This document shows positions 26,796-39,026 of a stretch of 64,000 nucleotides of DNA, piece after piece. The stretch is from Escherichia phage phi92. The stretch's first letter is position 1. Each line of letters begins with the position of its first letter. The notes below the pieces were generated by a model. It saw only the letters and a program-made list of their open reading frames with translations. It ran no database searches and had not been told where the DNA came from. Position numbers and translations under genes: made by a program. The DNA lies in sequence record NC_023693.1; one strand, 5' to 3'.

Positions 26796-27785
26796 TTAAA
26801 CTTTATTTTCCCACCACTCTTTGTTATCTACATACCAATCAATGGTTGAATAAAGTTTTTCTTCAAATGTGCCTTTAGCTTTCCACCCTAATTCCTTTTC
26901 AATCTTATAAGGATTCACTTCATATCTTAAATCATGCCCAGGCCTATCTGTAACCATCTCAATGAGGCTACAAGCATCTGTTTCAGATGGATATACCGCA
27001 TCCATATAATCACAAATCATATAGATTACATCAATATTAGTTCTAGGGTTTCTGCTCCCAATATTATATGTCTCTCCAGATTTGCCTTTAGTTACTACTA
27101 GGTGTAATGCCTCTGCGTGATCGTCAACGTATAACCAGTCTCTTACTTGAAGACCATTACCATAAACAGGGATTGGTTTATGCATTAAGATATTTGTTAT
27201 CGTTTTAGGTATTAGTTTTTCTGGATGATGATATGCTCCAAAATTATTTGAACAATTTGTTATAACTGTCGGAATACCATAAGTACGATGCCACGCTCTT
27301 ACCAAATGATCGCTTGCAGCTTTAGATGCAGCATATGGACTACTTGGTTTATAAGGATTCTGTTCTGTAAACGGATAATCTCCTTCTTCCAGATCACCAT
27401 ACACTTCATCTGTTGAAATATGATGGAACATTTTAAGATTTGATTTATCTCCCATTAAACGAACAGCTTCTAGAAGATTAAATGTCCCAACAATATTTGA
27501 ATTTATAAAAACACTCGGTGATGCTATTGAATTATCTACGTGACTCTCTGCTGCAAGATGCATTATATAATCTGGATTAACATCTGCCACAATCTTAGCA
27601 GTTAACTGCGCATTTGTCAAGTCAACACGACAAAACTTTACATTAGGTGTTTCTGATAAATTCCTAGGGTCTGAAGCGTAACCCCATTTATCTATAACGT
27701 AAATATCATTCTTAGTATTTTTAGCTAGGAAACGAACTACCGCACTTCCAATAAAGCCTAAACCACCTGTTACTAAGTATTTCAT
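26796..27785 (-). CDS. rmlB: dTDP-glucose 4,6-dehydratase
   Basis: [12 protein letters not shown]-binding motif, SDR-type YxxxK region, 329 aa. Confidence 0.85.
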
Positions 27786-28658: not shown

Positions 28659-28845
28659 ACTTGGCTACACCATTAACTATAATGTGACCGCAAGACATAA
28701 CTCCTAGCCAATGATCACCATTCTTTTTTAAACGTTTACCGTAAACATCACAGAAACCATTCTGTAATTCGGAAGCCTCATAAGAGGCTCCCTTTTCGAA
28801 AACGTCTTTGAAGTCAGAAATTAATCCAACACAAAGTAGTTTCAT
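28627..28845 (-). CDS. hypothetical protein
   Basis: 72 aa; start may be internal. Confidence 0.4.
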   Translation of the reverse strand: MKLLCVGLISDFKDVFEKGASYEASELQNGFCDVYGKRLKKNGDHWLGVMSCGHIIVNGVAKFEIIKGEKDD

Positions 28846-29930
28846 TAAAAGTCTAACTCCTCGTCATCACTTACATCTTTATTTGCTGAATTCAGTTTGT
28901 AAGCTGTAATTTGGATCTCCTGTGCTGCTGCTTGAATTTGATCTGGATTTAACCAAACATCCATCCAAGGCAGTGGACTTTTCTTCGGTGCACGGAATTT
29001 GTGTTTCATTTTCAGTCTGCGATAGATAGGCGCAGCATTGAAGTAAACCCAAAGTTTGAACAGCTCTGCGTTACCACCAACAATAATCCTTCCTTCACTA
29101 AACAGATAGTCACACCAATCTTCCTCTTGTCCAACTACCGTGTCAAGAATTTCTGTCAGAACGTCGATATTATCTTCGTATACTTTTCTCCAGACAGGAT
29201 CTTTCAGCAGTGCATCAATAATAGCATAATCCATTTTAACGTGCAATAGTTCATCCAACATAATTTTTTGAATGAGTTTAGCTGCACCTACAAACAGTTG
29301 CTGCTCTGCTAAGGCAAATGTTGCAGCAAAAGATGATATGAATTGAATGCCTTCCAGACCGATAAGTGCAATCATTCCTTTCAGAATCAGTAGACGAAGG
29401 TTATCATCCTTCTCAATCAGACCTAGAGCATATTTATGCCCTGCCTCTGCCAGATCACTCATTATCTCTTCAACTATACCCATCCTCTGGAAGATTCTTT
29501 CGTTCTCCATAATCTGATCGATAACTTCATTTGGATTAGGGATACACTGACGAATAATTTCAGAATATGTCAAAGCGTGTAAAACTTCCATTTCTGATTG
29601 CTTCATCATCATTGCACATGCTTCGTTGTTGCTTAAAAATGGTGCAAACAAAGTGATGATTGATTTAGCAAGTGAATCATTTTCCCATTGGAAAGATAGG
29701 TTTTTGATCATAACATCATAGTTGCTTTTAGAACAAGCTACGAAATCTTTTCGTGTCTGATCTAAGTTTACTTCGTTTTCATCCCAGTCTTGCTGTTTTT
29801 GTAGTTTGTACAGACGATGCATTTCTGGGTATGTTACATTAATAGAATCAAAAATACCTAACTGTTCTCCCAAAAATACAGGGTAGAAACCTTCTTTGTA
29901 AGTGTCGTTGTATAAGTTAATTGCTGCCAT
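28845..29930 (-). CDS. nrdB: ribonucleotide reductase small subunit
   Basis: di-iron/tyrosyl-radical R2 blocks (EACAMMMKQSEMEVLHALTYSE; GLEGIQFISSFAATFA). Confidence 0.85.
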   Translation of the reverse strand: MAAINLYNDTYKEGFYPVFLGEQLGIFDSINVTYPEMHRLYKLQKQQDWDENEVNLDQTRKDFVACSKSNYDVMIKNLSFQWENDSLAKSIITLFAPFLSNNEACAMMMKQSEMEVLHALTYSEIIRQCIPNPNEVIDQIMENERIFQRMGIVEEIMSDLAEAGHKYALGLIEKDDNLRLLILKGMIALIGLEGIQFISSFAATFALAEQQLFVGAAKLIQKIMLDELLHVKMDYAIIDALLKDPVWRKVYEDNIDVLTEILDTVVGQEEDWCDYLFSEGRIIVGGNAELFKLWVYFNAAPIYRRLKMKHKFRAPKKSPLPWMDVWLNPDQIQAAAQEIQITAYKLNSANKDVSDDEELDF

Positions 29931-29931
29931 T

Positions 29932-29960
29932 TAAAAATTCTCCTCAATAAAAAGGGGCCG
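29932..29960 (-). terminator. rho-independent terminator
   Basis: AAGGGGTTTCGGCCCCTT hairpin then TTTTATTG on minus strand. Confidence 0.5.
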
Positions 29961-29974
29961 AAACCCCTTGATGT

Positions 29975-30631
29975 TTAGCCTTGGAACACTGTTTTTGTTT
30001 CTGCCAAGTGATAGTATAAATCTGCCTTGTTTATAAGAGTGTTGTATACCTCTTGACAAAAATGTTCTTCCTCTTTGTAACGATTCGCTGTTTCCCTGAT
30101 CGACTTGGCTTTATCTTTTAACCAAGCGAAGTGTGCCTCTTCCTCTGTAGCGAAATAGCCTAAATGCTTGCTTTTGCTTCCAGAAGTTTTGGCATAAATC
30201 TTGCCATCTTTCCTAATATGCGCTCCGAGTAAGTATTTCCTTTTATGTCTCTTGGCATAACTTAAAAGTGTATTGATATAGGGAGGAACAAACCTACAAT
30301 ATTCAGGACAATAGACAGTATTTCCCTCAAGAACAAGATCTTTGTCTAAAACAAAACCTTCGACATTGTGTTCTTGATACCAATTATCAAAATTTGAAAA
30401 AGTAAACCAAGCATCACAGACGGTAACATCTTTATACCCTGGTCTAATATCTTCCATCTTATATGCACGATGAAACATGCCTTTCCAAGCTGCATAGGAA
30501 GGGTCTATGAATGTGTTAACCCTTTTCCCGTTGACAACGCCACCTTCCCACAATCTACGTTCAACATCCACAATCAAGGGGATTTCTCCCCTCTCTGTGA
30601 GAACAGTAACTTTACGTTTACCCTTCTTCAC
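29975..30631 (-). CDS. putative homing endonuclease with AP2-type DNA-binding domain
   Basis: HLGYFATEEEAHFAW AP2-like block; free-standing ORF between nrdA and nrdB. Confidence 0.5.
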   Translation of the reverse strand: MKKGKRKVTVLTERGEIPLIVDVERRLWEGGVVNGKRVNTFIDPSYAAWKGMFHRAYKMEDIRPGYKDVTVCDAWFTFSNFDNWYQEHNVEGFVLDKDLVLEGNTVYCPEYCRFVPPYINTLLSYAKRHKRKYLLGAHIRKDGKIYAKTSGSKSKHLGYFATEEEAHFAWLKDKAKSIRETANRYKEEEHFCQEVYNTLINKADLYYHLAETKTVFQG

Positions 30632-30639
30632 CTGTCCTC

Positions 30640-32904
30640 CTACATTTTACAGGCGCTACACCCCTCGTCTTCAGAATCTTCTTGAGCGAGTGAGGATGCC
30701 GATTTTGTTCTGCTATTTAGATAGTACAAAGATTTACCACCAAGTTTTGCAAACTGAAGAATATATTGCATTTCTGATTTAATGGATAAACGACCACCTT
30801 CCATCTTAGAATAGTCAATCCACTTATCACATGATGCACCTTGATCTAAGAATTTAGTCAACAGTCCATATGCTTCAGCCATATCTTTATCTGGTGTATC
30901 CCAAGCCGATTGGTAAATATCTTTTAGTTTATCGTAGTCTGGCACAATAAACAGAACATTACCCTTTTGGCTTTGTTTATAAACTATAGTATCACGTACA
31001 GGATACACAGAGTTAGTCGTATTACTTACAAGACTACTGGACTCATTTGGAGCAATAGCTGCTAATACGCTATTTCGGATACCACCTTGTGCAATGATAT
31101 CTTGTCGTAAACCTTCCCAATCCATTTTAAGTTTAAAATTGCCAATATCGTCTACAGCTTTAGCGTAGGTATCAATAGGCAACCATCCTTCAGGCCATTT
31201 GGTTTTATGCATCCATTCTGCATTACCTTTCTCTTTTGCCAAACGAAGAGAAGCTCTTGCTAACCAGTAATAATGCCTTTCTGCTAATTCGTGAATTAGT
31301 TTTTTGCCGTAAGGATCTGAATAAGTAACAAAATTACTTGCCAGATAATGTGCAAGGTTTGTAATACCTACACCGATAGACCTACGTGCTTTAGCAGTGA
31401 TTTCGTTATGTTTAAACGGATACTGCATTGTTTCAATAACATTATCAATAGTTAGAACGGTATAGTATGCAACATCTTCATATTCTTCTGGTGTAACACG
31501 ACCAGCTACAATAGAAGACAGGAAGCATAATGCCAATTCTTGATCTTCTGTATTCTCACCTGTGAAAAGATCAGTCATATTGTGAAATGCTTTCGTAGGT
31601 AAGAAAATTTCTTGGCACAAGTTTGACTGATAAATAACATCCTTAAACGGGGTATGTTTATTAGCATTATCCGCAAAGAACATATAAATACGTCCTGTCT
31701 CTGCTCTTTGTGTAATAATTTCTGCCAGAAGATCTCGTGCTTTTACAAACTTTTTCTTAATTCGTTTGCGACTAACTTTTTCATATACTTCTTCAAACTC
31801 TTCCTCGCTTTTATAAAGCGCATCATAGAGTTCTGGTGCTTCGTCATAACTAACTAGCATCCAATCTTTACCTTTTGCTGCACGGCGCAGGAAAGCATTG
31901 TTTACTACGATAGAGTAATCAAGTTTATCTACTCGTTTTTCACTAACAGTAGTTGGGTTTTTCAAACGTACCAGATCTTCAAAATCAGGTTCTAGTATTG
32001 TAAACGTTACTGTTGCACTTCCACCACGACTTGCTTGTTTTGATGCTCCAACACTTGTCTCCATCCATTTCAGATATGGTAAAAGACCACCGTGAACGAT
32101 ACGGTTGTTCTTAACACCTTGTCCTGTGGCACGGGTTTGAAGGTTAACACCAATACCTGCATTATTCAATGTATATTCATGCGCAAGATAGTTAGCAATT
32201 GCTAAAGATTCTGCTGTATCGTCTGCTCTAAACAGACAACAAGAAGCACTACCTTTAATCTTAGTACGCAAAGTTGTTAAATAAGGCGATGGTAAATTAA
32301 TCTTAAGATCACTTACGTAGGTATATAGACGTTTAATGTCTTCTACTCTGCGATCTTTTGGTTGGATTTCCATTACCTTCATTGCTACACCAATGAATAA
32401 AAACTGTGGTGATTCAAAAACAACATCATTGATCGCATCTTTCACAAGATACTTATCAACCATCTGGCGCAGTACGGAATAACCATAAGTTAGGTTTTTA
32501 TCGTGATTGACAATTTTACCAATCTCAATAATTTCTTCTTCTGTATAATCCATTTTTCCCCAATAGCCTTTACTTACAGACATATTGTAGAAATCCAGGA
32601 GGGAGGGGATATTGTGATATCCCCCATGAGCCTGTTTATAAATCATACCAAGAAGTAACCGACCTGCCATATCACTATATGCCTGATCTTTCTTATCAAT
32701 ACATGCTGCTATCATAGCTTTATGTAAATCACGAGTAGGCACACCGTCGTAACAACGTTTAACAGCTTCGAGTTCAATTTCAGACCAATTTAATTTACCA
32801 GCAGCAAACTCTGACCATTTACGAAGTTTTTCTGGATTAAATTCTTCTTTCTTGCCGTTTGTTTTTGTTACATAACGGATAGATTTGCTTAGATACTGAG
32901 TCAC
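30640..32904 (-). CDS. nrdA: ribonucleotide reductase large subunit (class Ia)
   Basis: 754 aa; SNLCQEIFLP active-site Cys block, N-terminal ATP-cone-like region. Confidence 0.9.
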   Translation of the reverse strand: MTQYLSKSIRYVTKTNGKKEEFNPEKLRKWSEFAAGKLNWSEIELEAVKRCYDGVPTRDLHKAMIAACIDKKDQAYSDMAGRLLLGMIYKQAHGGYHNIPSLLDFYNMSVSKGYWGKMDYTEEEIIEIGKIVNHDKNLTYGYSVLRQMVDKYLVKDAINDVVFESPQFLFIGVAMKVMEIQPKDRRVEDIKRLYTYVSDLKINLPSPYLTTLRTKIKGSASCCLFRADDTAESLAIANYLAHEYTLNNAGIGVNLQTRATGQGVKNNRIVHGGLLPYLKWMETSVGASKQASRGGSATVTFTILEPDFEDLVRLKNPTTVSEKRVDKLDYSIVVNNAFLRRAAKGKDWMLVSYDEAPELYDALYKSEEEFEEVYEKVSRKRIKKKFVKARDLLAEIITQRAETGRIYMFFADNANKHTPFKDVIYQSNLCQEIFLPTKAFHNMTDLFTGENTEDQELALCFLSSIVAGRVTPEEYEDVAYYTVLTIDNVIETMQYPFKHNEITAKARRSIGVGITNLAHYLASNFVTYSDPYGKKLIHELAERHYYWLARASLRLAKEKGNAEWMHKTKWPEGWLPIDTYAKAVDDIGNFKLKMDWEGLRQDIIAQGGIRNSVLAAIAPNESSSLVSNTTNSVYPVRDTIVYKQSQKGNVLFIVPDYDKLKDIYQSAWDTPDKDMAEAYGLLTKFLDQGASCDKWIDYSKMEGGRLSIKSEMQYILQFAKLGGKSLYYLNSRTKSASSLAQEDSEDEGCSACKM

Positions 32905-32915
32905 TTCCTCTCCTA

Positions 32916-33176
32916 TTAATTATGCATATTTAGAACATCTACATCATAACCGCCACGCATCTCATTATATAAGCCATTTGCGTATAGAAAACCTTCAAAA
33001 TGATCTATACCTTCAAAACCTTTTGCCTTTGCTTTGCGGTCTGCTTCTTGTCTTTTTGGAGATAATCTTTTAGATGTATCAAGGATAACTGTTACATTGC
33101 AACCTAATGTTTCATCAAAATAGACTTCAATTTCACAGCCTTCATATTTATTACTTTCTGTCATTTGGCCTCTCAA
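32916..33176 (-). CDS. hypothetical protein
   Basis: 86 aa. Confidence 0.5.
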   Translation of the reverse strand: MRGQMTESNKYEGCEIEVYFDETLGCNVTVILDTSKRLSPKRQEADRKAKAKGFEGIDHFEGFLYANGLYNEMRGGYDVDVLNMHN

Positions 33177-33587
33177 TTAGAATTCAGAATCATCATCTCG
33201 TGATGGATCATGTTCATTTCCGAAGTCTTCCATTTTGATATGAGAGCTACCCCAACCTGTAAAATCTTCTTCTCCAAAGTGCAAAATATCTACACCTTGA
33301 TAGATTCGCTTATATTTATAGTCCTGTCGAACTGGGAAAGTATACAATGTAGTATTTGCAAACACCACACGTCGATTGTTGTTACTACGAATATTAACAC
33401 CACGTTCTACTGTATAATGTCCATCGGTAGACATACCAAGCATTACTAATGCTGCTCGCAATGTAGTGTTATGATACTCGTGAGGAATTTTTCCTCCGTG
33501 TTTTTTAGCCATTTCTTTCCAGATCGGTGTAGCCTTAATGGTAGACATACTTACGGTCGCCCAAATGGTTGTATTAATTAGTGACAT
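33177..33587 (-). CDS. hypothetical protein
   Basis: 136 aa. Confidence 0.5.
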   Translation of the reverse strand: MSLINTTIWATVSMSTIKATPIWKEMAKKHGGKIPHEYHNTTLRAALVMLGMSTDGHYTVERGVNIRSNNNRRVVFANTTLYTFPVRQDYKYKRIYQGVDILHFGEEDFTGWGSSHIKMEDFGNEHDPSRDDDSEF

Positions 33588-33685
33588 AAATTCTCCTTCT
33601 CTCTTTTTAAGGAGAGCTACGCTCTCCTAACGTTAGCCTATACTACACGAATCTCAATTAAAAGTCAACTATAATTTTAAGTTGA

Positions 33686-34657
33686 TCACCATTTTGTATG
33701 GTTAGTCAAAAGTTGACGATGTTGAATCCAACCACAGAAGTTTCCACTCCACAAACGATGTTTACGATCCATATGTGTAATACCTTCTTCCCAAGAGGTA
33801 GGGAACGGAGGAATATTAATACCACCTTTCTGTTGTTTTAATCCTGACAAATCCATTTCTTTCATTGGCGTTGCCTGGTGTTCAAACGGAGATGCATGTA
33901 CCTTTTGTCCAGACAGCAAACGAGAATAGATATCCAATGCTTTATCTTTGGTATCATTCAATTTACGATAACTTACCTGAGCGCAACAAGAAGCTGAAAT
34001 AGCTTTTGCTTCATCTTCTGTCAACATTTTCTCGTTGGAGAAGGTTTCACCCAAGAAATAACGGATCATACCAGTTTCTGGATCTCGATCACGATTAACG
34101 TAAGGTGTATGCCATTCCCCTGGGAAAAGAAGATATGGTTCAGAAGATTCATACAGTTTTTTAATTTCTTTAGCAAGAGCCTCAATAGTAGGATCTGCAT
34201 CAGCATCTACGCGCAACCACAAGAAGTTTTCTAGCTCTGTAGTGGTTACTACAGTCTTCATACGCTGGAATGGTTCTAGTAGGCGGTTTGCAACCTGTTT
34301 ATGATAACCAGCAAGGGCAAACTCTTCTGCAAAACGTGCAGCACTTAGCGCAGCCAAGTCCCACCATTCTTTTGCAGTGTAACCTGCATCAATCAGGGCA
34401 TCGTGATCTGTGCCTTTATCTTGCATACCTGGTTGGTTAGCACCAAAACGATAAGGACGTGCTGGAGATTGCCGTACCATTTCAATTAGAGTTTTAACAG
34501 GGATAGCTCGACTTGATGCGGCATTACGAGAAAACAAACGATGCGTCATCAATTCAGAGTGAATGATTCGAGGATATTCAAGTTCAAAGGTAACAATATC
34601 CTTACCTTCAGATGTTTGAGAGTGTGCAATAATTTTTGCTGAAATAGAGTTTGTCAT
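33686..34657 (-). CDS. ThyX-like flavin-dependent thymidylate synthase (tentative)
   Basis: HRLFSRNAASSR resembles ThyX RHRx7S signature; no ThyA PCH motif; longer than typical ThyX. Confidence 0.4.
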   Translation of the reverse strand: MTNSISAKIIAHSQTSEGKDIVTFELEYPRIIHSELMTHRLFSRNAASSRAIPVKTLIEMVRQSPARPYRFGANQPGMQDKGTDHDALIDAGYTAKEWWDLAALSAARFAEEFALAGYHKQVANRLLEPFQRMKTVVTTTELENFLWLRVDADADPTIEALAKEIKKLYESSEPYLLFPGEWHTPYVNRDRDPETGMIRYFLGETFSNEKMLTEDEAKAISASCCAQVSYRKLNDTKDKALDIYSRLLSGQKVHASPFEHQATPMKEMDLSGLKQQKGGINIPPFPTSWEEGITHMDRKHRLWSGNFCGWIQHRQLLTNHTKW

Positions 34658-34666
34658 TATTTCTCC

Positions 34667-35257
34667 TTAAGGTAGTAAAATACTTTCAATTTCTTCCCAC
34701 TGATTATCTAAACCAGTGATAATTACATTAGGAAGTTTCTTTAACTCTTCCAAGTATGGATCTTCGTAAATAGTGTTGAAATATATTTTCAACGTTTCAT
34801 CTGGAAATAGGACAAGATTTTCAGCCCTATCGTCAATAGTTACGTCGCAAGGTAATAAGTATTTTTCTTTTGTTGCGAAAAAGCCATTACCAGATGTTCT
34901 ACTAAAGTCCACTTTATCTAAAGATCGTGTTACGTGTCTATATTTAGAACTAAGGTGTCCACCCTTAGTGTGGCTTGCTATAGATATATTAGCGCCATTT
35001 GCAATTATACGATGAACAACATCTGTACTATTAGGTACTACTCCCATAGTATCATATAGATGTTGGTTATCCCAAAAAGAGTAAGGATCTACACCAAATT
35101 GCTTTTTAAAATCAGGAAAATATTTCGTAATATCATAATGCACAGTCTTTTGTGTCTTATCAAACTTGATATTAGATCTACTTACCGCATTTAACCAACT
35201 CAACCATTCTATATCGGCAGGAGCTATTACTAAATCCCAATCACATACTAGACGCAT
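34667..35257 (-). CDS. HAD-family 5'(3')-deoxyribonucleotidase-like protein (tentative)
   Basis: start at internal ATG 35257 (AGGAGA SD); CDWDLVIA (DxD-like) and VTIDDRAENL blocks. Confidence 0.4.
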   Translation of the reverse strand: MRLVCDWDLVIAPADIEWLSWLNAVSRSNIKFDKTQKTVHYDITKYFPDFKKQFGVDPYSFWDNQHLYDTMGVVPNSTDVVHRIIANGANISIASHTKGGHLSSKYRHVTRSLDKVDFSRTSGNGFFATKEKYLLPCDVTIDDRAENLVLFPDETLKIYFNTIYEDPYLEELKKLPNVIITGLDNQWEEIESILLP

Positions 35258-35804
35258 TATTTCTCCTGTTATAACATTTTCTACACATTGTTTCGTAAAT
35301 GTCTTCTCCTCCAATAACAATCTGTTCTTTAGAGTCGATAAGTCTAGCATTGAAAATAGCTTTTCTTCCACATTTACAAATGCTTTTCAATTCTGTAATT
35401 GAATCTGCTATGGCTAATAACCGTTCAGAACCTTCAAACAATTCTGTAGCAAAATCTGTTTTAAGCCCATAACAGAATACAGGAATATCGTAATTATCTA
35501 CCACATCTCCAAGAATGTCAACCATATCTTTAGTTAGGAATTGTGATTCGTCAACAAATACTGCATCTACTGGATTTTCTTTAAGCTGTGTATAAATTTC
35601 CAGCATATCTTCTTTTGTTTTAACTGGTTTTGCTTCCTCTTTAATACCTATCCTAGAAGCAATAGCACAACCAGATCTGGTATCTAAAGCTGAAGTTAAA
35701 AGAAGAACTTTCATATTTCTTTCTTTATAGTTCCAAGCTGTTTGTAGCAGGTGTGTGCTTTTACCACTGTTCATCGGACTGTATCGGAAATAAAGTTTAG
35801 CCAT
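35241..35804 (-). CDS. tdk: thymidine kinase
   Basis: P-loop MNSGKST and C-terminal zinc ribbon CxxC...CxxC typical of Tdk. Confidence 0.85.
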   Translation of the reverse strand: MAKLYFRYSPMNSGKSTHLLQTAWNYKERNMKVLLLTSALDTRSGCAIASRIGIKEEAKPVKTKEDMLEIYTQLKENPVDAVFVDESQFLTKDMVDILGDVVDNYDIPVFCYGLKTDFATELFEGSERLLAIADSITELKSICKCGRKAIFNARLIDSKEQIVIGGEDIYETMCRKCYNRRNNASSM

Positions 35805-35849
35805 ATTTTCTCCTCTAACGCTCCCATTTGTGGGAGCGATAATACTTTA

Positions 35850-36425
35850 TTATTTCTCTTCGTCAAGAAGAATTTTTACTATTTGTTTTCTTCGCTTACT
35901 TACTGTACTTTCTGGTGAAATTCCGCGCTTCGTTAGCCAATTTTTATCCTTTTTAGACTGGCATAAAGCTATCGCTTCCTTCTCCGCTTTTGCTTCCCTG
36001 AATGTCATATCGTGCTTGTCAGCGTAAGCCAGGATAGCGTTACACTGCTTACAAACTACACGCAGGTCGTCTTCTGTTACGTACAATAGGCGTAAAACAA
36101 AACTTGGGATATCTTCATAACAGGTTAATGTACCTGCTGCATTAATATGGTCTACTTGAAAGTCTTTCATACCTCCTGTATGTCCACACAATTCACACTT
36201 ACAATTCCAAACCTGTTTCGGTTTGCCTGTTTTCTTATCTAAAACTATATTTCCATCTTTATCCAACCTATCAGCTTTAAACCGTACAGATTGAATCTTT
36301 TTTATCTTATTCGGGTGTCTCACCCATGCTTTCCTTAAGCAACCCCTTAAATATGTATAAAAGGCTGCTTGAGTTTTCCAAGGTGTTCCATCTCCCCAAA
36401 TAACTTTAGGTTCTTTATTTTCCAA
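35850..36425 (-). CDS. HNH endonuclease (homing-type)
   Basis: CELCGHTGG...VDHINAAG...CKQCN HNH motif. Confidence 0.7.
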   Translation of the reverse strand: MENKEPKVIWGDGTPWKTQAAFYTYLRGCLRKAWVRHPNKIKKIQSVRFKADRLDKDGNIVLDKKTGKPKQVWNCKCELCGHTGGMKDFQVDHINAAGTLTCYEDIPSFVLRLLYVTEDDLRVVCKQCNAILAYADKHDMTFREAKAEKEAIALCQSKKDKNWLTKRGISPESTVSKRRKQIVKILLDEEK

Positions 36426-36609
36426 TAGTGCTCACCTTTTTAGCTACATAATCTCCTGGTGGAATGTTATATTTAAAGAAAAGCATACGGTCTAAACCAG
36501 CTTTACACATGTTTTCTGGGATTGTGATTGTATATAGGAGTTTATCTCCACGCTTATTGTATATTTTATATACTTCACCCTCTCCGTATTGTTTACCGTG
36601 AGAAGCCAT
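36415..36609 (-). CDS. hypothetical protein
   Basis: 64 aa. Confidence 0.4.
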   Translation of the reverse strand: MASHGKQYGEGEVYKIYNKRGDKLLYTITIPENMCKAGLDRMLFFKYNIPPGDYVAKKVSTIGK

Positions 36610-37033: not shown

Positions 37034-37995
37034 TAAATTCCAATAACAGTGTTTACACGCTTCTCTTTGCTACGCAAATTAACACGTCCACGAGACAGGC
37101 TATTACATGATGTGCATCTTAGCACTTGGAATGTACTAACCGCTGTTGTGTAAACCTTACCAGGAACAAATTCAAGGTGCTCTTTACCGCAACGAGGACA
37201 ACGAAGTTTTTCATCGTCATAGAATGCAGATACGTTAGGATGTTGTGGAATCCATGCACGAAGTTTGATGTAAAGATCTCTAAGAGAAACAACATCACCA
37301 TCGTTGTATGTTTGCATACGGAAGAAGGCATGTCTATCTCCTTCACAACATGCTTTCCACAAAGGAAAACCTTCATTATCAAGTTTAAAGTTTTCTGTAT
37401 CAAAATACAAACACATTTCTTTAAGCGCATTAGAAGGTAGTGCAAACTGCTTCTTAGCTGCCTTGAGTGTATCAATTACAACATAATGTGATGGTGGCTC
37501 CATACCGTGAAAAGCAAAACGTTGGTTAATATAAGCCTTATCAAACTTAATACCGTTGTGCGCGATCACAATATCTGCATCGTCAAGCAAGTGCCAGAGA
37601 TCTTGACATAATTCCCAATCATCTGTATGATCTATGTCAAACAAAGGGTAATTGCTAAGGTTCTTACCTTCTACTTCCCCTGTTTCTAAATCAGCAGATG
37701 AATAGGAAAGCAAGTAACCTCGACGAATAACTTGTTCAGGTGCAATAAAGGCTTTGAAACGTGAGAAGCTATACACAATCTCCGGTGCTGTCTCTACGTC
37801 AATAATTTTAATTACTGGCCCACCTTTATCTTGCGGAGCACCGCGATGTGGTGAATTTACACGAGCTAAGTAATCATTTACTGTGCTCTTCTTAGTAGAA
37901 CTTCCCAACACCTCTTGTGCAATCTTACGCGAAGAATAACCTTGTGCTTTCATAGATACAATCAAGGCTTTCTGTTCGTCTGTTAATTTACTCAA
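37033..37995 (-). CDS. DnaQ/RNase-H-fold 3'-5' exonuclease with C-terminal zinc ribbon
   Basis: IIDVETAP (Exo I-like), IAHNGIKFDKAYI (Exo II-like), CPRCGK...CTSCN. Confidence 0.55.
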   Translation of the reverse strand: MSKLTDEQKALIVSMKAQGYSSRKIAQEVLGSSTKKSTVNDYLARVNSPHRGAPQDKGGPVIKIIDVETAPEIVYSFSRFKAFIAPEQVIRRGYLLSYSSADLETGEVEGKNLSNYPLFDIDHTDDWELCQDLWHLLDDADIVIAHNGIKFDKAYINQRFAFHGMEPPSHYVVIDTLKAAKKQFALPSNALKEMCLYFDTENFKLDNEGFPLWKACCEGDRHAFFRMQTYNDGDVVSLRDLYIKLRAWIPQHPNVSAFYDDEKLRCPRCGKEHLEFVPGKVYTTAVSTFQVLRCTSCNSLSRGRVNLRSKEKRVNTVIGI

Positions 37996-39026
37996 TGTTC
38001 CTCCTGCTCTGAAATATATGCTTGTAGCATACTTTCAAAAGTTGTTTCATCATTCGCCCAACGTTTCATATATACCAACTGAAAAATTGTCTCTATCCAT
38101 TCATCAGTTGTCATTTCTACTTCTTCACCATCCCAAGAAGTAAATTTAACGCCATCTGGGAACCATTCATAATACTGATCTTTAACTGTCTGAAAAAGTT
38201 CAGCCTGTGTTTTACATTTGGAAATAAGATTAAAGCAAGTAATATCTCCAAATTTAACATCGAAGTCTTGGTAAGGTCGAATACTATCTGTCTTATCACC
38301 CATTAGCATTTGATAAGCTAACCAGTAACTACCCCAACCCTTAACTTCTTTTTTCTTACCTTTTTCTACGATCCAGATATCACCGATAGATTCATCAATC
38401 AGAATAACACAAGGATTTTTATAAACACCATCCTCTTTATAAAAGTTAAAGAGTAAACTTGGTGTATGTAAGCTATCTTTGTCGATAGATGCTACAATAT
38501 GAGAAAACTTACCAGTTTCCTTGTAGGCTTTATACCCTGCATATCCATAGATTTCTAAAGCATCATCTGCCTCAATACCAGTAACAACGTCACCGTTATG
38601 TTTTTCAACTAGATAATCTTTAGTATCTGATAATTGGATTGGTCTTAAATCTGATCGTTCTGATTTATATTCTTTTGGCATTTTGAAAGAATGCCGGAAG
38701 GTTTTTCCTACCCCGATGACACCGCAATACTTTTGAAGTTTTAGGTGATCCACCATCTGGGTTATTTTTGTCTTTGCAGCTTGAAACGTAAAAGAAATAT
38801 TCTCTGGGACTATTTGAACATCTTTTATTTCAAAATCTTCCTTGGAGAACAACTTCTTACCAGCAGCTTCGCGTTGCGCGTTAAGTGCTCCTAACCATCC
38901 TCCAATGTTTTTTGAAGATTTACCCCAAAAATCTGTTCTTGTTTCAAACTCTTTTACATTACCGGAAGCCTTGTGTACAGCGTGGATTTTTCTTTGTTCT
39001 AAAGCTGAAGACGCTTGGAACGCCAC
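37992..39026 (-). CDS. 5'-3' exonuclease / flap endonuclease family (T4 RNase H / T5 D15-like)
   Basis: TGIEADDALEIYGY and LMGDKTDSIRP match FEN blocks GYEADD and GDxSDNIPG. Confidence 0.55.
   Translation of the reverse strand: MAFQASSALEQRKIHAVHKASGNVKEFETRTDFWGKSSKNIGGWLGALNAQREAAGKKLFSKEDFEIKDVQIVPENISFTFQAAKTKITQMVDHLKLQKYCGVIGVGKTFRHSFKMPKEYKSERSDLRPIQLSDTKDYLVEKHNGDVVTGIEADDALEIYGYAGYKAYKETGKFSHIVASIDKDSLHTPSLLFNFYKEDGVYKNPCVILIDESIGDIWIVEKGKKKEVKGWGSYWLAYQMLMGDKTDSIRPYQDFDVKFGDITCFNLISKCKTQAELFQTVKDQYYEWFPDGVKFTSWDGEEVEMTTDEWIETIFQLVYMKRWANDETTFESMLQAYISEQEEH

Follow-up and report, generated by a model that had tools for sequence, protein, structure and literature searches.

MobE of phage T4 is encoded by a free-standing HNH homing endonuclease gene (HEG) located between nrdA and nrdB; it nicks the nrdB of T2 and co-converts flanking markers (PMC2790892, Wilson & Edgell 2009). 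In phage ICP1, the genes gp59, gp115-116, and gp209 have been named "IPA-HNH HEGs", in which a divergent N-terminal HNH domain, detected by HHsearch alone, is joined to a C-terminal AP2 domain; 18% of the IPA-HNH HEGs are located near ribonucleotide reductase (RNR) genes (PMC10448857, Barth, Dunham and Seed). The slot between nrdA and nrdB is therefore a known landing site of HEGs. Here, two open reading frames (ORFs) in the nucleotide-metabolism cluster of Escherichia phage phi92 were analyzed, namely ORF1, between nrdA and nrdB, and ORF2, beside tdk, within a window of 64,000 nucleotides from sequence record NC_023693.1 (the window being the whole stretch of DNA under analysis). The joint reading that we consider likely is that ORF1 is a mobile, selfish HEG-type gene that has crossed two genera and that ORF2 is a fixed, vertically inherited HNH nuclease. 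The two ORFs and their flanking genes are as follows.

29975-30631, minus strand: ORF1, 218 amino acids, GTG start, contains HLGYFATEEEAHFAW
30640-32904, minus strand: nrdA, class Ia RNR large subunit, upstream flank of ORF1 (Pfam Ribonuc_red_lgC, E 6.9e-99)
28845-29930, minus strand: nrdB, RNR small subunit, downstream flank of ORF1 (Pfam Ribonuc_red_sm, E 1.9e-33)
35850-36425, minus strand: ORF2, 191 amino acids, TTG start, contains CELCGH...VDHI...CKQCN
35241-35804, minus strand: tdk, downstream neighbour of ORF2 (Pfam TK, E 1.2e-54)

The window was assigned to Justusliebigvirus (phi92-like E. coli myoviruses, Stephanstirmvirinae). Over an 8.2-kb stretch of it, identity was 98.7% with Escherichia phage VivaForever and 97-99% with some 50 genomes of Justusliebigvirus; a further 71 records matched this stretch in a 60-80% band, and those that were inspected belonged to Phapecoctavirus. 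The preliminary description of this DNA had placed an AP2-domain ORF between nrdB and nrdA and an HNH ORF beside tdk, and both placements were confirmed by the ORF listing and by Pfam matches of the flanking genes, with the AP2 domain recognized by family profile and fold and the HNH domain by invariant residues and fold. Both ORFs were taken as real genes because full-length homologues and PHROG matches were found (phrog_953 for ORF1, E 3e-58, and phrog_1985 for ORF2, E 9e-66, both labelled "HNH endonuclease"). Pfam and NCBIfam scans gave no match above the cut-off for ORF1, ORF2, or the 111-amino-acid gene described below, and single-sequence PDB searches with ORF1 and ORF2 were empty. No paralogues of either ORF were found elsewhere in the 64-kb window, and no relationship between the ORF1 family and the HNH family of ORF2 was detected using hhalign.

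Among 53 near-identical Justusliebigvirus records, ORF1 was present in five (VivaForever, UAB_1, PD114, and two copies of VEcB), and the other 48 carried an unrelated 111-amino-acid gene (orf111) in the nrdA-nrdB slot. ORF1 is thus polymorphic for presence and absence at this junction among related phages; OZ035773, an isolate assigned to the species VEcB, was itself without the HEG. Four states of the junction were distinguished. In the empty state (arall, muut, and phAPEC8), the nrdA stop is followed by a hairpin, then orf111, then nrdB. In ESCO5, the HEG lies between the nrdA stop and the hairpin and orf111 is retained. In the window, VivaForever, VEcB, UAB_1, nieznany, and EF1-1, presence of the HEG is combined with deletion of orf111, which falls between two GAGGAG-like ribosome-binding site (RBS) repeats (junction 29930-29975 in the window). 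Finally, ZCKP1 holds an internally deleted relic of the HEG, reduced to approximately 33 nt from its 5' side and 135 nt from its 3' side. The HEG junctions are clean, and the polymorphism among close relatives occurs at a precise site. The parts of the junction on which the following comparisons depend are these.

29952-29969, minus strand: terminator-like hairpin with a T-run, just downstream of ORF1, the native nrdA-distal hairpin
30640-30699, minus strand: last ~60 bp of nrdA in the HEG-linked allele (tail ...SEDEGCSACKM), co-conversion tract and candidate target/immunity region

The insertion was placed between the nrdA stop and the hairpin because the hairpin is also present at empty sites. 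ORF1 has an RBS (GGAGGA) that shares bases with the stop codon of nrdA, and the hairpin follows ORF1, so nrdA and ORF1 probably share a transcript; the coding strand in and around ORF1 showed no sigma-70-like promoter. The displaced gene, orf111, is a conserved single-copy gene whose normal place is the nrdA-nrdB interval, where it runs into the start of nrdB (arall, L001:1618-1953; ESCO5, L005:4702-5040 in the fetched loci). Its distribution follows the phylogeny of the genera: of the 80 records that contain it, 48 lie at 90-100% identity and 32 at 45-60%, the range between the genera. It is dispensable, since it is cleanly deleted in the window and in other HEG-carrying genomes. The hairpin in the window is situated only approximately 12 nt upstream of the nrdB RBS. 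In T4, a promoter within mobE drives nrdB.

DNA identities of the HEG and of nrdA were at odds with each other. Between VEcB (Justusliebigvirus) and nieznany (Phapecoctavirus), the HEG was 96.3% identical and nrdA 78.3-78.6%. Within genera the relation was reversed: the window and VEcB shared 89.5% in the HEG and 97.9% in nrdA, nieznany and ESCO5 82.2% and 98.4%, and nieznany and EF1-1 79.2% and 98.2%, respectively. Variable columns of the nrdA alignment concentrate in the tail of the gene. In its last 60 bp, VEcB was 96.5% identical to nieznany, far above the whole-gene value, and its identity to arall, which belongs to the same genus as VEcB, was just 84.2%; HEG-carrying nieznany and HEG-less phAPEC8 shared 73.7% over these 60 bp and 98.4% overall. 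The tail ...SEDEGCSACKM was encoded by every fetched HEG-carrying genome except EF1-1, and by the relic-bearing ZCKP1, and the tail of HEG-less genomes reads ...E(E/D)(S/G)GCE(A/S)CKM and is shorter by one codon. HEG-less arall is an exception in having the HEG-type tail, as probably do Cardinal and phiWec187, judged from alignment length. When the flanks were examined for a SNP pattern that would locate the cleavage site, the nrdA tail allele was found to correlate with the HEG, but three HEG-less phages appear to share this tail, so it is treated here as a candidate target site of ORF1. IMG/VR, scanned for the exact pattern of the HEG-type tail, gave no match.

The HEG allele of EF1-1 (L006:4001-4633) is a mosaic, in which the 3' third (the C-terminal part, with AP2) is 95-100% identical to nieznany and the remainder 56-84%. 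This pattern suggests recombination between HEG alleles, with sequence contributed by a more distant donor. The last ~40 bp of nrdA in EF1-1 (tail ...NLKESGCEGCSM) are unlike those of all other genomes.

Homologues of ORF1 are spread patchily, with 2535 places in 1487 phage records found by tblastn; a single genome of another phage can hold as many as five. All seven of the full-length HEG alleles examined were intact. The mobility of ORF1 is supported, at the level of sequence comparison, by its distribution, the junction states, the disagreement with the backbone, the co-converted tract, the mosaic allele, and the copy number. The reading of ORF1 as a homing-type mobile gene in the preliminary description was accordingly borne out by the junction polymorphism, the backbone mismatch, the co-converted nrdA tract, the ZCKP1 relic, and the patchy multi-copy family, and the mobile-element traffic among related phages that it proposed holds for ORF1, between two genera, but finds no support for ORF2.

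By analogy with T4 MobE, ORF1 probably nicks or cuts HEG-less genomes near its insertion point. During co-infection, the ORF1 protein would bind DNA through its AP2 domain and nick or cut an allele that lacks the HEG, close to where nrdA ends. Repair from the HEG-carrying genome would then transfer the HEG along with the terminal ~60 bp of nrdA. The copied tail probably carries an uncleavable, resistant variant of the target site. The HEG cassette has crossed between Phapecoctavirus and Justusliebigvirus, and in the lineage of the window it has also displaced orf111, via deletion between the two RBS-like repeats. Ordinary recombination between the conserved flanks could have contributed to the spread of ORF1.

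ORF1 resembles T4 MobE in its position in the nrdA-nrdB slot inside the nrd transcription unit, in the terminator-like hairpin nearby, and in the co-conversion of flanking nrd sequence. In detail the two proteins are not related, since ORF1 combines an AP2 domain with a D-K-D core (as opposed to the Mob/HNH type of MobE), and they come from different phage families; moreover, the nicks made by MobE fall in the 5' part of nrdB, whereas the ORF1-linked tract is the 3' end of nrdA. RefSeq already labels orthologues of ORF1 "HNH endonuclease", and literature searches brought up no description of the polymorphic junction for Justusliebigvirus, Phapecoctavirus, or Stephanstirmvirinae.

For ORF2, the same comparisons gave a different picture, in which the following features are involved.

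36021-36203, minus strand: HNH core of ORF2, residues ~75-135 (C77, C80, D92-H93, C125, C128, N129)
36415-36609, minus strand: orf64, 64-amino-acid gene upstream of ORF2, its 3' end overlapping the ORF2 start by 11 nt
37992-39026, minus strand: FEN-like 5'-3' exonuclease, 344 amino acids, recurring beside or near ORF2 homologues in distant phages

By its sequence and structure model, ORF2 is a canonical zinc-type HNH (His-Me finger) nuclease of predicted catalytic activity. Across 31 homologues, down to 36% identity, C77, C80, D92, H93, and N129 were invariant, and C125 and C128 were at least 90% conserved (core residues are given in full-length numbering). The model, with a predicted local distance difference test (pLDDT) score of 95.1, shows the beta-beta-alpha-metal fold; its closest solved folds were the HNH domains of GVE2 (5h0o), Geobacter Gme (4h9d), and EcoKMcrA (6ghc), and the core matched the Gme HNH nickase with a Foldseek probability of 0.98. 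Pfam HNH (PF01844) scored 16.0 bits, below the gathering cut-off of 21.4, and several homologues have PF01844 or PF14279 on record. ORF2 differs from GVE2, Gme, and EcoKMcrA in carrying additional conserved helical regions at the N-terminus (W..YLRGCLRKAW) and the C-terminus, for which no solved structure offers an analogue, and it is located in a replication module rather than next to a terminase gene. The N-terminal stretch comprises residues 10-48 (window ~36282-36398; W16, Y25-L26-R27-G28-C29-L30-R31, W34, P38, K40, and R48), has no Pfam or PDB match, and presumably serves this nuclease family as its own module for binding DNA or a partner.

Two other class assignments were considered for ORF2 and rejected. 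Like T4 endonuclease VII (gp49), ORF2 is a His-Me finger nuclease with a zinc site, it has weak PHROG and Pfam Endonuclease_7 matches, and Chaseviridae records label its homologues endonuclease VII; this reading was ruled out on fold scores, gp49 being neither the closest fold nor the closest sequence match. The T4 Mob/HNH_3 class was ruled out given that HNH_3 (PF13392) gave no match at E up to 10, with only weak matches to HNH, HNH_5, and Endonuclease_7, and that the core is central in the protein, not N-terminal.

ORF2 was found by tblastn at 763 places in 762 records, of which 557 cover at least 80% of the query. Records with ORF2 number 54 at an identity of at least 95% and 78 at 60-80%, against 54 and 71, respectively, with the nrd cluster. 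The gene was seen in every fetched locus, with no presence/absence polymorphism among the relatives found. Within the genus, ORF2 and its flanks alike are 99-100% identical. Against EF1-1 of Phapecoctavirus, ORF2 was 76.2% identical, within the range of its neighbours (54.6-77.8%): the FEN-like exonuclease (77.8%), orf64 (75.0%), the polymerase exonuclease subunit (73.8%), thyX (71.8%; Pfam Thy1 (ThyX), E 3.9e-9 in the window), the NT5C-like ORF (62.1%), and orf133 (54.6%). The 11-nt overlap of orf64 with the ORF2 start is common to both genera, EF1-1 included. Homologues of ORF2 directly follow a FEN-like 5'-3' exonuclease in Pakpunavirus and Chaseviridae, and are separated from it by two small genes in ICP1 and by three genes in the window; these exonucleases are homologous to one another across the four distant phage groups. 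No sign of ORF2 mobility was found in distribution, copy number, divergence, or context. ORF2 would therefore be a fixed, vertically inherited member of the replication/nucleotide-metabolism operon, and it most likely nicks or processes phage or host DNA together with the FEN-like exonuclease rather than serving its own spread.

The preliminary description had read ORF2, too, as a mobile homing endonuclease, and on its distribution this reading is refuted, as the gene is kept in all relatives found, is single-copy, diverges as its flanks do, and overlaps its upstream neighbour. Some points weigh against the reading of ORF2 as a fixed replication-module gene. Individual inspection for ORF2 covered only part of the roughly 130 genomes. 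HEGs, too, are known to gather around replisome genes, which leaves the argument from neighbourhood short of conclusive. The alternative to which these points belong is that both ORFs are free-standing HEGs and that ORF2 is an old one swept to fixation in Stephanstirmvirinae, which would account for the missing polymorphism. It draws on the intact HNH motif, the "HNH endonuclease" label of PHROG 1985, the location in a nucleotide-metabolism/replication cluster that is a frequent HEG landing area, and the inclusion of gp179, the homologue of ORF2 in ICP1, in a list of Mob-like HNH HEGs (PMC10448857). We regard this alternative as unlikely, since ORF2 is single-copy in every genome found, has the divergence of its flanks, keeps the orf64 overlap across genera and the exonuclease neighbourhood across four distant phage groups, retains invariant catalytic residues down to 36% identity, where a fixed HEG would be expected to decay, and has no Mob-type HNH_3 match. 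Automatic "homing endonuclease" and "endonuclease VII" annotations of the ORF2 family are probably misleading.

The remaining alternatives concern ORF1, for which the anatomy of the protein is relevant.

30254-30502, minus strand: N-terminal conserved core of ORF1, putative divergent HNH-like nuclease domain, residues ~44-126
30338-30346, minus strand: D96-K97-D98 of ORF1, invariant in the family
30074-30232, minus strand: AP2-type DNA-binding domain of ORF1, residues ~134-186

Because a word-indexed search gave just 15 homologues of ORF1, an exhaustive HMMER search of representatives was used in its place and returned 9074 representative clusters at E <= 1e-3. An alignment of 61 diverse homologues showed R55, W75, D96-K97-D98, Y107, and N120 to be invariant and no histidine to be conserved (residue numbers are full-length; the alignment left out the start codon and its own numbers are one lower). 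In the AlphaFold model (pLDDT 92.9), N-terminal beta-hairpins are followed by a helical region, a strand-strand-helix unit bearing D-K-D and N120, and then three strands and a long helix; the C-terminal AP2 domain matches plant AP2/ERF structures by both family profile and model. Pfam, profile, and fold searches gave no match of the N-terminal core to HNH models or structures. HNH-AP2 endonucleases of cyanobacteria, ciliates, and phages have been proposed as ancestors of the plant AP2/ERF factors (reference 45 of PMC10448857), reportedly by Magnani and co-workers in 2004; ORF1 is like these in joining an endonuclease-type core to an AP2 DNA-binding domain and unlike them in that its core is without the canonical His of HNH.

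In a tblastn search, residues 48-201 of ORF1 matched ICP1 with 34.1% identity (E 3e-16), in a gene annotated "Previously called: GP59" that adjoins the DNA polymerase gene. By sequence, ORF1 is a member of the IPA-HNH family founded on ICP1 gp59, with which it shares homology, a C-terminal AP2 domain, a core not seen by Pfam HNH_3, and a free-standing position beside an essential gene. It differs from the IPA-HNH HEGs of PMC10448857 in that neither Stephanstirmvirinae nor the nrdA/nrdB slot appears in the main text of that paper. ORF1, known here from its sequence, is a short form without extra zinc-finger or CapR modules. Longer homologues additionally carry DUF4379 (treble-clef zinc fingers) and CapR, both DNA-binding modules, and no second nuclease domain was found in them. 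The D-K-D core is the sole candidate effector because these homologues gain DNA-binding modules and never another nuclease.

It is decidedly unlikely that this core (D-K-D...N, no His) is either a mechanistically distinct nuclease, with Lys/Asp in place of the His general base, or non-cutting. If the core does not cut, a "HNH-AP2" family of more than 9000 clusters would spread by a non-classical (non-His-Me) route. A related alternative, very unlikely in our estimation, is that ORF1 is no nuclease at all, being an AP2-type DNA-binding regulator or a domesticated HEG derivative that was spread passively by recombination of the nrdA/nrdB flanks. Recombination is indeed abundant in the nrdA-nrdB region, the core has no conserved His and matches no HNH model or structure, and HEG-derived AP2 and CapR modules have been reused as repressors (bioRxiv 10.64898/2026.02.23.707548; PMC10448857). 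However, the strictly invariant D-K-D, N, R, W, and Y on the predicted strand-strand-helix point to an active site, the addition of DNA-binding modules alone in longer homologues is the usual HEG build, and precise insertion, a short co-conversion tract, a relic, and patchy multi-copy spread are classic marks of homing. That ORF1 is ancestral at the junction, and that the common "empty" state reflects repeated loss and not gain, is hardly credible: the ZCKP1 relic and the apparent HEG-type nrdA tail of three HEG-less phages show that losses occur, but HEG alleles diverge far more than the backbone within a genus and far less between genera, VEcB has a Phapecoctavirus-like nrdA tail, and orf111 follows the genus phylogeny as a single-copy gene.

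Both ORF1 and ORF2 are ordinary genes for large virulent phages. What is new here is that ORF1 joins the known IPA-HNH HEG family at a landing site known from T4 MobE; ORF2 belongs to a known superfamily and has an unstudied accessory architecture. With ORF1 read as a mobile HEG-type gene, one phage subfamily displays most stages of the HEG life cycle at the nrdA-nrdB locus, namely the empty site, invasion, loss of a neighbouring gene, inter-genus transfer with ~60-bp co-conversion, allele mosaicism, and decay to a relic, and both the transfer and the life cycle are documented unusually cleanly. The locus could be a tractable E. coli system for determining whether and where His-less IPA-HNH proteins cut DNA. 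The "HNH" label by itself is no sign of mobility, as is illustrated by ORF2, whose behaviour is that of a fixed replication-module gene.

On the downstream side of ORF2, 45 bp separate its end from tdk. This gene is present in Justusliebigvirus and missing from the syntenic site in Phapecoctavirus EF1-1 (L018 4067-4104), where the NT5C-like gene comes directly after the HNH gene; tdk, and not the HNH gene, is thus the variable gene of this spot. The NT5C-like ORF of the window (34667-35371) is listed from its first GTG (234 amino acids) and would overlap tdk by 131 bp. Its start is uncertain, since most GenBank records give 591 bp (a 17-bp overlap with tdk) and VivaForever gives 684 bp.

Four records labelled "UNVERIFIED Campylobacter phage" (A150, A145, C3, and A110a; MG065639.1, MG065645, MG065656, and MG065689) were 98.5% identical to the region. 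Their Campylobacter host label looks doubtful, and contamination or mislabelling may explain it. Downstream of the nrd cluster, a dTDP-sugar pathway is represented in the window by a dTDP-glucose 4,6-dehydratase-like epimerase (26796-27785), to which the annotation of relatives (locus L004:6629-8654) adds a glucose-1-phosphate thymidylyltransferase and a dTDP-4-dehydrorhamnose 3,5-epimerase. These dTDP-sugar genes are unusual cargo in a virulent phage.

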